A stretch of 3,487 nt of DNA, taken from NCBI RefSeq assembly GCF_003334335.1, contig NZ_QOWQ01000084.1; one strand, 5' to 3'. Below the pieces are notes generated by a model that saw only the letters and a list, made by a program, of their open reading frames with translations, made no database searches and was not told the DNA's origin. Below, piece after piece: positions 1 to 3,487 of this stretch. The stretch is from Escherichia coli (GTDB lineage Bacteria; Pseudomonadota; Gammaproteobacteria; Enterobacterales; Enterobacteriaceae). The position numbers and the translations under genes were made by a program. Position 1 is the stretch's first letter. Each line of letters opens with the position of its first letter.

Positions 1-977
1 GTCAGAAATATACGGCCGGCAAGGTGTGGAGCTGAGCCGTTCACTGCTGTCGGGCTGGGTGGATGCATGCTGCCGGCAGTTGTCTCCGCTGGAAGAGGCG
101 CTTCATGGCTATGTGCTGACTGACGGTAAGCTCCATGCTGATGACACGCCTATCCCGGTGCTGTTGCCAGGCAATAAGAAAACGAAGACCGGGCGGTTAT
201 GGACCTACGTTCGTGACGACCGTAACGCCGGGTCAACGCTGGCGCCGGCGGTGTGGTTCGCTTACAGCCCGGACAGAAAAGGCATCCATCCGCAGACCCA
301 TCTTGCGGGGTTCAGTGGTGTACTGCAGGCGGATGCATACGCCGGGTTCAACGAGCTGTACCGGGATGGCCGGATAACGGAAGCCGCCTGTTGGGCTCAC
401 GCCCGCCGTAAAATCCACGATGTGCACGTTCGCACCCCGTCAGCCCTGACGGAGGAAGCGCTGAAACGGATCGGCGAACTGTACGCCATCGAGGCAGAGA
501 TAAGGGGAATGACGGCGGAGCAGCGCCTTGCCGAACGTCAGTTGAAAACGAAACCGCTGCTGAAATCCCTGGAAAGCTGGCTGCGTGAAAAGATGAAAAC
601 CCTGTCGCGACACTCAGAACTGGCGAAAGCGTTCGCATACGCCCTGAACCAGTGGCCGGCGCTGACGTACTATGCAGATGATGGCTGGGCTGAGACGGAC
701 AATAACATCGCTGAAAATGCGTTGCGGATGGTCAGTCTGGGCCGCAAAAACTACCTGTTCTTCGGTTCGGATCATGGAGGAGAGCGGGGAGCGCTGCTGT
801 ACAGCCTGATCGGGACGTGCAAACTGAACGGAGTGGAGCCAGAAAGCTACCTCCGCTATGTCCTTGACGTCATAGCCGACTGGCCGATAAACCGGGTCGG
901 CGAACTGCTCCCCTGGCGCGTAGCACTGCCGACTGAATAACACATCCCCGTCAATACGGTTCTTGCTGCACGCTTAC
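1..977 (+). mobile_element. IS66-family insertion sequence, right (3') end; inferred terminus near 977
   Basis: Transposase gene ends at 940. The minus-strand reading of 962-977 is 5'-GTAAGCGTGCAGCAAG, and IS66-family ends are recalled to begin 5'-GTAAGCG. The flanking minus-strand gene appears interrupted exactly here. The boundary is inferred and could be off by a few bp. Confidence 0.65.
2..940 (+). CDS. IS66-family transposase, C-terminal portion (5' end outside the window)
   Basis: Reading frame is open from position 2 with no upstream stop, so the gene is truncated by the window edge; stop TAA at 938-940. The C-terminal sequence ...[52 protein letters not shown]...ELLPW matches the conserved C-terminal signature I recall for IS66-family transposases. 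The ORF track's GTG at 26 is probably not the real start. Confidence 0.88.
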
Positions 978-1164
978 CCTTCTGTTGCTCACTCAGGGCA
1001 TGTAAATCATGCTCAAACCACGCCCCCTGAGCATCTGTCTGCAGAATCAACCGGCCATGACAGGAAAGGCAGAAACAATGCCGGATATTTCTGCTGAGCG
1101 CAGAGTCGGCACTGATAATGTGCTCACCCGGCGTGATCCCCAGCCCCGTTTTTATACCGTTCAT
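978..1164 (-). pseudogene. N-terminal fragment (~62 codons) of a second zinc-ribbon protein, paralogous to the 1161-1544 gene, apparently disrupted by the IS66 insertion
   Basis: ATG at 1164-1162 overlaps the TGA of the upstream gene (ATGA coupling). The product MNGIKTGLGITPGEHIISADSALSRNIRHCFCLSCHGRLILQTDAQGAWFEHDLHALSEQQK shares a C-x2-C-(14-15 residues)-WFEH motif with the upstream protein. The computed ORF (856-1164) continues into IS66 sequence, which is taken to be a fortuitous read-through. Confidence 0.45.
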
Positions 1165-1544
1165 TCTGCTACCCCCTCCTCACTGAAACGCCCGGTCTGG
1201 CAGTGTGTGCAGTACTGCTCCCCATAATAATCGTGGTGACATTGCCTGCAGTACCAGCTGGCTTTACGTACCACGGGTAAGGCATCCGGGACGAATTGCT
1301 GCAGACGTTTAATCAACCGTATTTCTCTGCGTTCCGGCCTGACATAAGGACATTGCTGCGCGTGCTCCGTCAGCCCGTCGTCAGTGTGTTCAAACCAGGG
1401 CCGTTCGGTGTCGTATTGCGGGTGGTATCTGAGTGCACTGCCGCAAAGGTGGCAGGTGTAGTGGGCATAAGGAGCAGTCTGTGCGGTACGGGCACCGATC
1501 AGACGTCCGTTGCCATCAAGTGCGAGAAAAGATTTTGCGTACAT
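1161..1544 (-). CDS. Small double zinc-ribbon protein (127 aa) with CoiA-N-terminal-like CxxC...WFEH motif
   Basis: ATG at 1544 with GAGGA about 10 nt upstream on the minus strand. N-terminal module YAKSFLALDGNGRLIGA...CHLCGSALRYHPQYDTERPWFEH resembles the N-terminal zinc ribbon of CoiA-like proteins (CPxC...HFAH). C-terminal module CRQCHHDYYGEQYCTHC is a second CxxC-x9-CxxC knuckle pair. No nuclease domain is present. Confidence 0.6.
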   Translation of the reverse strand: MYAKSFLALDGNGRLIGARTAQTAPYAHYTCHLCGSALRYHPQYDTERPWFEHTDDGLTEHAQQCPYVRPERREIRLIKRLQQFVPDALPVVRKASWYCRQCHHDYYGEQYCTHCQTGRFSEEGVAE

Positions 1545-1710: not shown

Positions 1711-2280
1711 TCAGCCACGACTGCAGCCAAAATTGCGCTCACCGGTGCCGTAAGCTTTGGTACTCTCCTTCGCCAGATAGTCAGCACGCTCCAGCACCTG
1801 CTGAAAGCCGGTGTCATCATCGCGTTCCAGCCACACCGCCGGCCTGACCGGAAAATGTGCCAGCGTGTCATAACGTCCGGCATCCACTCCCAGGGCACTG
1901 CACCACGCCTGTTTAATCATCCCGGCCAGTGATCCCGGAGCGCGGTAATCGCCGGCACGACACCAGGTATCCCGGTTGACCAGCAGCATCAGGTGATAGT
2001 GTTTTTTACCTTTGCACTCCCCAAACTCCCGGGCCCAGACGTAATGCAGGGTTGTGGGATGCACGCGTTTACCTTCCCGATGCTTACGTTTCTGGTAAGC
2101 GTCGATTCGGGCTTTCAGGGCATTGATGAAGCGGGATATCACAGCTGCGTCCGTTGCTGCCGGTACATCCGGGAGACGCAGGTCAACCCGCAATGCCGTC
2201 AGGCGGGGATGAACATTCAGTGCGTGCCGCACCGTCTCACGAATACGTTGCTGCCAGAAGGGGTTGTATTTGTAGGTCAT
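1711..2280 (-). CDS. HUH-motif rolling-circle Rep-like protein, YagK/YfjJ (Inovirus Gp2-like) family (189 aa)
   Basis: ATG at 2280 preceded by GGAGAT (revcomp of 2287-2292); stop TGA at 1711-1713. Product starts MTYKYNPFWQQRIRETVRHALNVHPRLTALRVDLRLPD, as I recall for YagK/YfjJ cryptic-prophage proteins. It contains HYHLMLL (HUH motif 2) and ADYLAKESTKAY (YxxK-type motif 3). The track's extension to 2316 lacks an ATG or RBS and covers the hairpin, so 2280 is the preferred start. Confidence 0.7.
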   Translation of the reverse strand: MTYKYNPFWQQRIRETVRHALNVHPRLTALRVDLRLPDVPAATDAAVISRFINALKARIDAYQKRKHREGKRVHPTTLHYVWAREFGECKGKKHYHLMLLVNRDTWCRAGDYRAPGSLAGMIKQAWCSALGVDAGRYDTLAHFPVRPAVWLERDDDTGFQQVLERADYLAKESTKAYGTGERNFGCSRG

Positions 2281-2441: not shown

Positions 2442-2481
2442 AAAAAACAGGTTACGGATAAGGCGTGGAGAGGGAGCGATC

Positions 2482-2676
2482 GTGATATGCAAAAAGAAGT
2501 GCAGGGACTGTGGTAACGCAATTACTCATAATACAGTATGTTGCCCGTATTGTGGCGCTGTCGACCCCTTCGGTTATTACCGGAAGACCGATCGTCTGCT
2601 CTGTTTACTGACGTTACTGCTGCTGCTGATTCTGGTTACCGTTTCAGGCGTCAGTGTATTTGTACTGTTGCAGTAG
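2482..2676 (+). CDS. Small zinc-ribbon protein with C-terminal transmembrane helix (64 aa, GTG start)
   Basis: GTG at 2482 lies 5 nt after GGAGAGGGAG (2467-2476). Product MICKKKCRDCGNAITHNTVCCPYCGAVDPFGYYRKTDRLLCLLTLLLLLILVTVSGVSVFVLLQ has a CxxC-x10-CPYC zinc ribbon followed by a roughly 25-residue hydrophobic segment. Stop TAG at 2674-2676. The track's TTG at 2413 coincides with the predicted -35 box and is unlikely to be the start. Confidence 0.5.
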   Translation: MICKKKCRDCGNAITHNTVCCPYCGAVDPFGYYRKTDRLLCLLTLLLLLILVTVSGVSVFVLLQ

Positions 2677-2829: not shown

Positions 2830-3220
2830 TCAGCCCCGACAAATACGAGTCCCCTTCAGAAGATACAGGCCGGTAATGCCTGAACGCCTGCCCCTCTGTA
2901 CACCATTCCCTTTTGATTTCGAATTCTTTGTTGCCGTTATACTGCTTAATGTTCCCGATCTTCCGGTGCACAGATAACACCGGAGTCATCGTAGCGCGGA
3001 TTCAAGATTCAGGTGACATATTTCCAGACGGAAGCCGGCACGCGATCGTAAAGTTTGTTCATTGTCAGTTCTGCCAGCCGGTGATCGACCGCAGAGTTAA
3101 AGGCTTCCAGCTCCGCAGGGGTAAGTTTATAACGTGTGTGGGAAATCACTTTTTCCAGCGTCTCCCGGGATGAACAACGACGGAACTGCTCTGGTTTTAA
3201 CTTCCATTCGTCTCTCGTTA

Positions 3221-3487
<267 letters not shown>

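Follow-up and report, generated by a model that had tools for sequence, protein, structure and literature searches.

Locus and gene A

The DNA analysed here is a stretch of 3,487 nucleotides (nt) from Escherichia coli (contig NZ_QOWQ01000084.1, assembly GCF_003334335.1), referred to below as the window. It is chromosomal island DNA, and many strains are 99.9% identical to it across its full length. Its subject is gene A, which encodes a protein with two putative zinc modules and lies between a truncated paralogue (B) and a YagK/YfjJ gene. Feature coordinates are collected in Table 1.

Table 1. Features of the window, with position, strand and basis of assignment
Feature	Position	Strand	Basis or remark
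Gene A	1161..1544	(-)	ATG start, 127 codons and TGA stop (1161-1163); list of open reading frames (ORFs), RefSeq annotation of identical loci
N-terminal module (residues 2-87)	1284..1541	(-)	Pfam DUF7828; putative remote homologue of CoiA N-terminal zinc finger
Zinc site 1, span of probable ligands C31, C34, H53, C65	1350..1454	(-)	Conservation and alignment to CoiA; metal putative
C-terminal module (residues 94-123), C4 zinc ribbon	1176..1265	(-)	Pfam Zn_ribbon_11, conservation, AlphaFold2 strands
Shine-Dalgarno-like GAGGAA	1553..1558	(-)	8 nt 5' of gene A ATG; read from sequence
Paralogue B, first 62 codons (MNGIK...CFCLSC...WFEH...)	979..1164	(-)	ORF and translation; annotated as partial DUF7828/zinc ribbon pseudogene
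IS66-family insertion element, 3' part (tnpC coding sequence 1-940)	1..978	(+)	NCBIfam transpos_IS66, E 6e-97; annotation
YagK/YfjJ 'inovirus Gp2 family' gene, 189 amino acids (aa)	1711..2280	(-)	Pfam YagK_YfjJ_C, E 3.9e-48; REP_ORF2-G2P, E 4e-5
65-aa ORF	2479-2676	(+)	Divergent from Gp2 gene
hha fragment (haemolysin expression modulator)	3009-3188	(-)	N-terminally truncated
IS3-family element, start	3483-3487		

A reading of the window made from its sequence alone (the sequence-only reading) had placed a 127-aa ORF at this position with the motifs CxxC-(15)-WFEH and CxxC-x9-CxxC, and both spacings proved exact when the codons were checked. The first motif consists of C31-H-L-C34, 15 residues and W50-F51-E52-H53 (codons of C31 at 1452-1454, C34 at 1443-1445, W50 to H53 at 1386-1397, H53 itself at 1386-1388), and C65 is encoded at 1350-1352. 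The second is C99-x2-C102-x9-C112-x2-C115 (1248-1250, 1239-1241, 1209-1211 and 1200-1202, respectively). The gene is 100% identical across many strains, and its product is identical to RefSeq WP_016232313.1, named "putative zinc ribbon protein". The isoelectric point (pI) of the protein is near neutral (about 7), with a strongly basic stretch only in the linker helix.

Domains and predicted fold

Pfam assigned two domains to the gene A protein: DUF7828 (PF25165) on residues 2-87, covering model positions 1-87 of 87 (E 2.3e-31), and Zn_ribbon_11 (PF11682, formerly DUF3279) on residues 94-123 (E 6.3e-8). No catalytic domain, nuclease or otherwise, was detected with Pfam, NCBIfam, PADLOC or PHROGs, in agreement with the sequence-only reading, which had described a protein without a nuclease. 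NCBIfam had no usable match for the 127-aa protein, PADLOC gave zero matches, and PHROG matches were found only at E ≥ 0.3.

A structure was predicted with AlphaFold2 using the family alignment described below (mean predicted local distance difference test score, pLDDT, 80.9). The N-terminal module is modelled as a beta-hairpin, a short helix, the CxxC knuckle, two strands leading into WFEH, a short helix (60-64) beside C65 and a basic linker helix (72-84). The C-terminal module is modelled as a three-stranded ribbon (strands 95-99, 104-108 and 121-123). It has the features of a classical C4 zinc ribbon, with two CxxC knuckles on beta-hairpins and conserved cysteines, the zinc being putative; the conserved W97, Y106, G108, G118 and S121 fall within it.

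The protein would accordingly carry two zinc sites, C31/C34/H53/C65 and C99/C102/C112/C115, in which the metal itself is inferred. The ligand set of the first is probably C-C-H-C, using C65, and not C2H2, because the first His of the HFAH motif of CoiA is Trp in the gene A protein.

Relation to CoiA

CoiA (CoiA_N PF25164 and CoiA_nuc PF06054) is a D-loop-resolving structure-specific nuclease of natural transformation, and the sequence-only reading had likened the first motif of the gene A protein to its N-terminal zinc module. The gene A protein itself had zero Pfam CoiA_N matches even at E ≤ 10, and a hidden Markov model (HMM) built from the N-terminal module matched 211 of 1.84 billion representative proteins, the best 150 of these matches being all ≤ 240 aa and none of them CoiA-sized. 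HMM-to-sequence methods thus do not join the DUF7828 family with CoiA. When 30 family members were scanned singly, 7 matched CoiA_N at E ≤ 0.1 (best 1.3e-3) and 5 matched DUF7830 (PF25169) at the same threshold. These single scans speak for a distant link.

The likeness was further supported by profile-profile comparison. The CoiA set comprised 13 genuine CoiA-family genes from annotated plasmid and replicon records, including those of the mecA-coiA-pepF type (E. faecalis, S. aureus); as a control, E. faecalis CoiA matched CoiA_N at E 6e-18 and CoiA_nuc at E 1.5e-27 (residues 68-212). When the 30-member family alignment was set against that of CoiA, Prob was 95-96% and P was 4e-8 to 1e-9 over 63-66 columns, with residues 5-77 of the gene A protein paired with CoiA residues 1-74. 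Controls with a reversed CoiA alignment and with 30 column-shuffled versions gave scores of only 7-15 (P ≥ 0.06). In the alignment CxxC was paired with CPxC, WFEH with HFAH, C65 with the Cys after HFAH and the 'A-x-D/N-x-x-G' hairpin with its CoiA counterpart. H53 was aligned to the second His of HFAH.

Common to CoiA and the N-terminal 65-75 residues of the gene A protein are, in order, the hairpin 'A-x-(D/N)-x-x-G', CxxC, a spacer of 15-16 residues, aromatic-F-x-H, a later Cys and a helix. Judged by profile and predicted fold, this module and the N-terminal zinc finger of CoiA are probably remote homologues. The Cys and His pattern agrees with that of CoiA at CxxC, the second His and the following Cys, and departs from it at the first His of HFAH: W50 replaces it in the gene A protein and in nearly all members, whereas in the CoiA alignment H52 is ≥ 90% conserved and H55 invariant. 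DUF7830 likewise overlaps the CoiA_N region, being matched by genuine CoiA at E 1e-4 on the same residues, and DUF7828 members match it only below threshold. CoiA_N, DUF7828 and DUF7830 look like one superfamily.

The gene A protein is, on its sequence, not a CoiA, because it has neither the PD-(D/E)XK nuclease domain nor the CoiA C-terminal region (it ends at residue 127), HFAH has its His to Trp replacement, and a C4 zinc ribbon that CoiA lacks has been added. It also differs in setting, lying in Enterobacterales integrative islands and not in a competence-type mecA-coiA-pepF locus.

Family, conservation and distribution

Word-indexed searches gave 303 homologue clusters from the single sequence and 609 from the profile. 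In the 120 clusters listed for each search, proteins had the same two Pfam domains and were about 125-145 aa long; the exceptions in length were fragments and a few longer homologues (up to 240 aa), which resemble read-throughs from A into B. A family alignment was made from 30 diverse homologues with 24-62% identity to the gene A protein, all 30 of which had both DUF7828 and Zn_ribbon_11. C31, C34, F51, H53, W97, C99, C102 and C115 were invariant, and C65, C112, E52, A8, A18, Y106, G108, G118 and S121 were ≥ 90% conserved. The sequence-only reading had named unconserved cysteines and histidines in homologues, together with the lack of a CoiA-like profile match, as what would refute it; the eight probable ligands were instead among the most constant positions. 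In pairwise ratios of nonsynonymous to synonymous substitution (dN/dS) for gene A, three orthologues gave 0.11-0.16, and the most divergent of those compared gave 0.27.

By these measures gene A is a real, intact and constrained gene under purifying selection, and a spurious ORF was rejected on the grounds of that selection and the conserved short architecture. The same data bear on whether gene A is a truncated or pseudogenised CoiA nuclease, to which the homology of the N-terminal module with CoiA_N would point. The two-domain architecture of about 130 aa and the stop region are conserved, CoiA_nuc matches were zero and dN/dS was 0.11-0.27; the explanation was rejected and is regarded as extremely improbable.

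Gene A is a full member of the already catalogued DUF7828 + Zn_ribbon_11 family, with which its length, Cys/His pattern and island context all agree. The family appears as 'putative zinc ribbon protein' (NCBI), 'Ybl85' (UniProt) and DUF3279; in UniProt many members carry the mistaken name 'DNA-directed RNA polymerase, beta subunit/140 kD subunit'. The gene was present in 3801 of 5426 complete E. coli genomes (~70%; median 2, maximum 6 copies), and 7617 of 7624 places were chromosomal. A stand-alone version of the module, which the sequence-only reading had thought unusual, is thus a common one. Plasmid copies were rare (33 of 72,556, tblastn), and tblastn with the protein gave no match in 50,697 phage records. 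Named members from ten divergent clusters were all from Enterobacterales (Citrobacter, Klebsiella, Yersinia, Pectobacterium, Rahnella, Ewingella and others). In K-12 no such gene follows yagK or yfjJ, which may be why the family has been neglected; literature searches turned up no paper on the family, and nothing functional on DUF7828, DUF3279, Ybl85 or YfjJ/YagK.

Paralogue B and the IS66 element

The start codon of paralogue B and the stop codon of gene A share the sequence ATGA (1161-1164), an overlap that suggests translational coupling. A and B are 32% identical (E 6e-19). At intact loci B likewise starts over the end of A, A-B identity is 27-32% and both proteins share the two domains. 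Here an IS66 insertion has removed the remainder of B after 62 codons, the only difference from a typical member of the family; the context otherwise follows the family norm of a YagK/YfjJ-like gene upstream, a tandem paralogue and a CP4-type island. An intact B of the 'MNGIK' subtype was not found in the sample examined, and the related entries P0217, P0223 and P0224 look frameshifted or chimeric.

Natural proteins of 238-247 aa were also observed (P0179 and P0346; locus L036, 7001-7744), in which an extra DUF7828 N-module stands ahead of a complete B-like protein, after an ordinary A gene. Their sequences hint at several N-modules working together.

This locus may be functionally crippled, its partner paralogue having been destroyed by IS66, unless another copy complements it. 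The decay could be carried further, and gene A here taken as a non-functional passenger in a degenerating island, intact by chance or by recent descent. B is cut by IS66, its intact subtype was missing from the sample, the region has IS3 and additional IS66 copies on its flanks and an hha fragment lies nearby; the hha fragment and the IS3 start are further evidence of island decay. Against this stand the complete identity of gene A in many strains, the purifying selection on the family, species that carry A alone and the median of two copies per genome, which makes trans-complementation possible. Being a passenger would moreover concern the state of the locus and not the role of the family, and is judged improbable.

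The YagK/YfjJ neighbour and the island setting

The YagK/YfjJ protein upstream of gene A has an HUH-like HYHLML motif and a YLAKESTK motif with a candidate catalytic Tyr. HxH and YLAKE..K are conserved among its relatives, as expected of an HUH nickase, and the family, common in E. coli islands, looks from its sequences like a single-domain HUH nickase that has yet to be characterised. No terminator-like site was found between this gene and gene A. The Gp2-A arrangement (≥ 80% of a 1120-nt query) was found in at least 3494 E. coli genomes, compared with 3729 that have a near full-length A. Loci in E. coli, Salmonella, Yersinia, Serratia and metagenomic relatives show the same succession of Gp2-like gene, A and B, the last two again sharing an overlap.

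In divergent metagenomic loci alpA is followed by a YagK/YfjJ gene or a degenerate relative of about 177 aa (UCP030791), and then by a DUF7828 gene, with gaps between the Rep-like and DUF7828 genes of sometimes only 9-16 nt. Proteins of the UCP030791 type (PF27752) were seen at L035 6494-6985, L009 8852-9391 and L039 6458-6991 and 8537-9067. They align with YagK/YfjJ and are without the HxH and Tyr motifs, and look like inactivated relatives that are still linked to DUF7828 genes. In some Enterobacterales-like metagenomic islands the cassette of alpA, YagK_YfjJ or a UCP030791-type protein of 163-177 aa, and DUF7828 stands twice in tandem (L039 6142-9856, L035 3776-8238); the two copies in L035 are separated by a TIR-domain gene. 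The surrounding elements are CP4-44/CP4-57-type islands with integrase, AlpA, YfjI, a YfjP-like GTPase, YfjT, DUF932, anti-restriction, RadC and Ag43 genes.

This setting raises the question of a zinc-finger transcriptional regulator of island genes. Alone or with its paralogue, the protein would act on promoters in the alpA/integrase/Rep control region, adjusting excision or the expression of cargo. Gene A always lies where the island has its regulatory genes, next to alpA and small helix-turn-helix (HTH) genes; the alpA / Rep-like / DUF7828 cassette is repeated in some islands, and small zinc-ribbon proteins are often regulators. Linkage is tightest to the Rep-like gene and not to alpA, Pfam showed no HTH or other known motif for reading double-stranded DNA (dsDNA), and what it most nearly resembles is the N-terminal part of a structure-specific nuclease and not a transcription factor. 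A regulator is considered unlikely.

Defence-type cargo was observed just 3' of A/B at several loci: SfiI/BglI-like restriction-modification, Dnd phosphorothioation genes and a large SIR2 protein (L014 10639-12629; L036 9515-14574; L017/L018 ~14800-16393). The modules could be surfaces that bind protein and not nucleic acid, in an adaptor or inhibitor whose target is the HUH protein or some factor of host or phage, for instance in defence or anti-defence modulation. Zinc ribbons commonly mediate protein contacts, the pI is near neutral, and TIR, Dnd, restriction-modification and SIR2 genes often adjoin the pair. The Rep-like neighbour is constant, whereas the defence genes nearby differ among loci and so resemble variable island cargo, probably not a functional partner; together with the absence of PADLOC families and of phage matches, this leaves the adaptor a doubtful explanation.

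Two further features of the window lie beyond the YagK/YfjJ gene or around it. In the product of the 65-aa ORF a CxxC...CxxC motif precedes a hydrophobic helix (zinc ribbon and membrane anchor); it shares 68% identity with that of a 66-aa gene at the equivalent position of locus L003 (E. coli-type contig, GCA_030927295.1), with weak PHROG matches. Around the genes no inverted repeats, no excess of promoter-like or terminator-like sites and no Rfam family were found.

Proposed function

The reading that we favour, tentatively and at somewhat less than an even chance, is that the gene A protein, probably with its paralogue, is a non-catalytic, zinc-dependent recognition subunit for single-stranded DNA (ssDNA) or for junctions of single- and double-stranded DNA. 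It would act in trans with the island HUH protein in the processing of island DNA, whether in nicking, replication or mobilisation. The sequence-only reading had likewise suggested a DNA- or RNA-binding adaptor.

HUH enzymes act on ssDNA. Accessory small proteins are found next to HUH Rep genes, an example being gene V after gene II in filamentous phages. The arrangement here resembles that gene order, a small non-catalytic protein being encoded directly after a Gp2-like HUH gene; the gene A protein has no sequence or fold similarity to the oligonucleotide/oligosaccharide-binding (OB) fold of the gene V ssDNA-binding protein, and the likeness would be one of position alone. For its part, CoiA binds ssDNA in preference to dsDNA and cuts 5'-tailed junctions of single- and double-stranded DNA (bioRxiv 10.1101/2024.02.06.579203). 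The choice of ssDNA or a junction as the proposed ligand follows from this substrate preference taken together with that of the HUH enzymes. Recognition of this kind is also consistent with the conserved aromatics W50, F51, W97 and Y106 and the basic linker helix of the family, with the recurrent Gp2-A-B order and with the retention of HxH and YLAKE..K in the neighbour.

Several points weaken the case for recognition of nucleic acid in partnership with the HUH protein. No solved structural analogue of the gene A protein was found, and a survey of homologues for domain fusions, which the sequence-only reading had proposed, gave no Rosetta-stone fusion among the best 150 of the 211 N-module HMM matches. 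No hairpin was found near the genes. The overall pI is near neutral, and binding of nucleic acid is itself a prediction. An AlphaFold2 model of an A-linker-B fusion, with a predicted template modelling score (pTM) of 0.38, speaks neither for nor against a complex.

A wider proposal is held with much less confidence and is thought unlikely: that the A/B pair is the trans-acting, zinc-dependent ssDNA or junction recognition subunit of the YagK/YfjJ HUH nickase, in which case the common 'cryptic' CP4-type islands would carry a working rolling-circle or mobilisation module, and the zinc finger of CoiA would have a role in substrate recognition.

As a discovery the result is modest, the family having already been catalogued, and the functional part is put forward as inference. 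Its value is that abundant island genes, present in ~70% of complete E. coli genomes and usually in ≥ 2 copies, gain a testable functional handle. That handle consists of the kinship of the N-terminal module, which has no nuclease attached, with the zinc finger of CoiA and of the close coupling of the gene to an HUH-nickase-like one; both results are also relevant to the part that the finger plays in CoiA.
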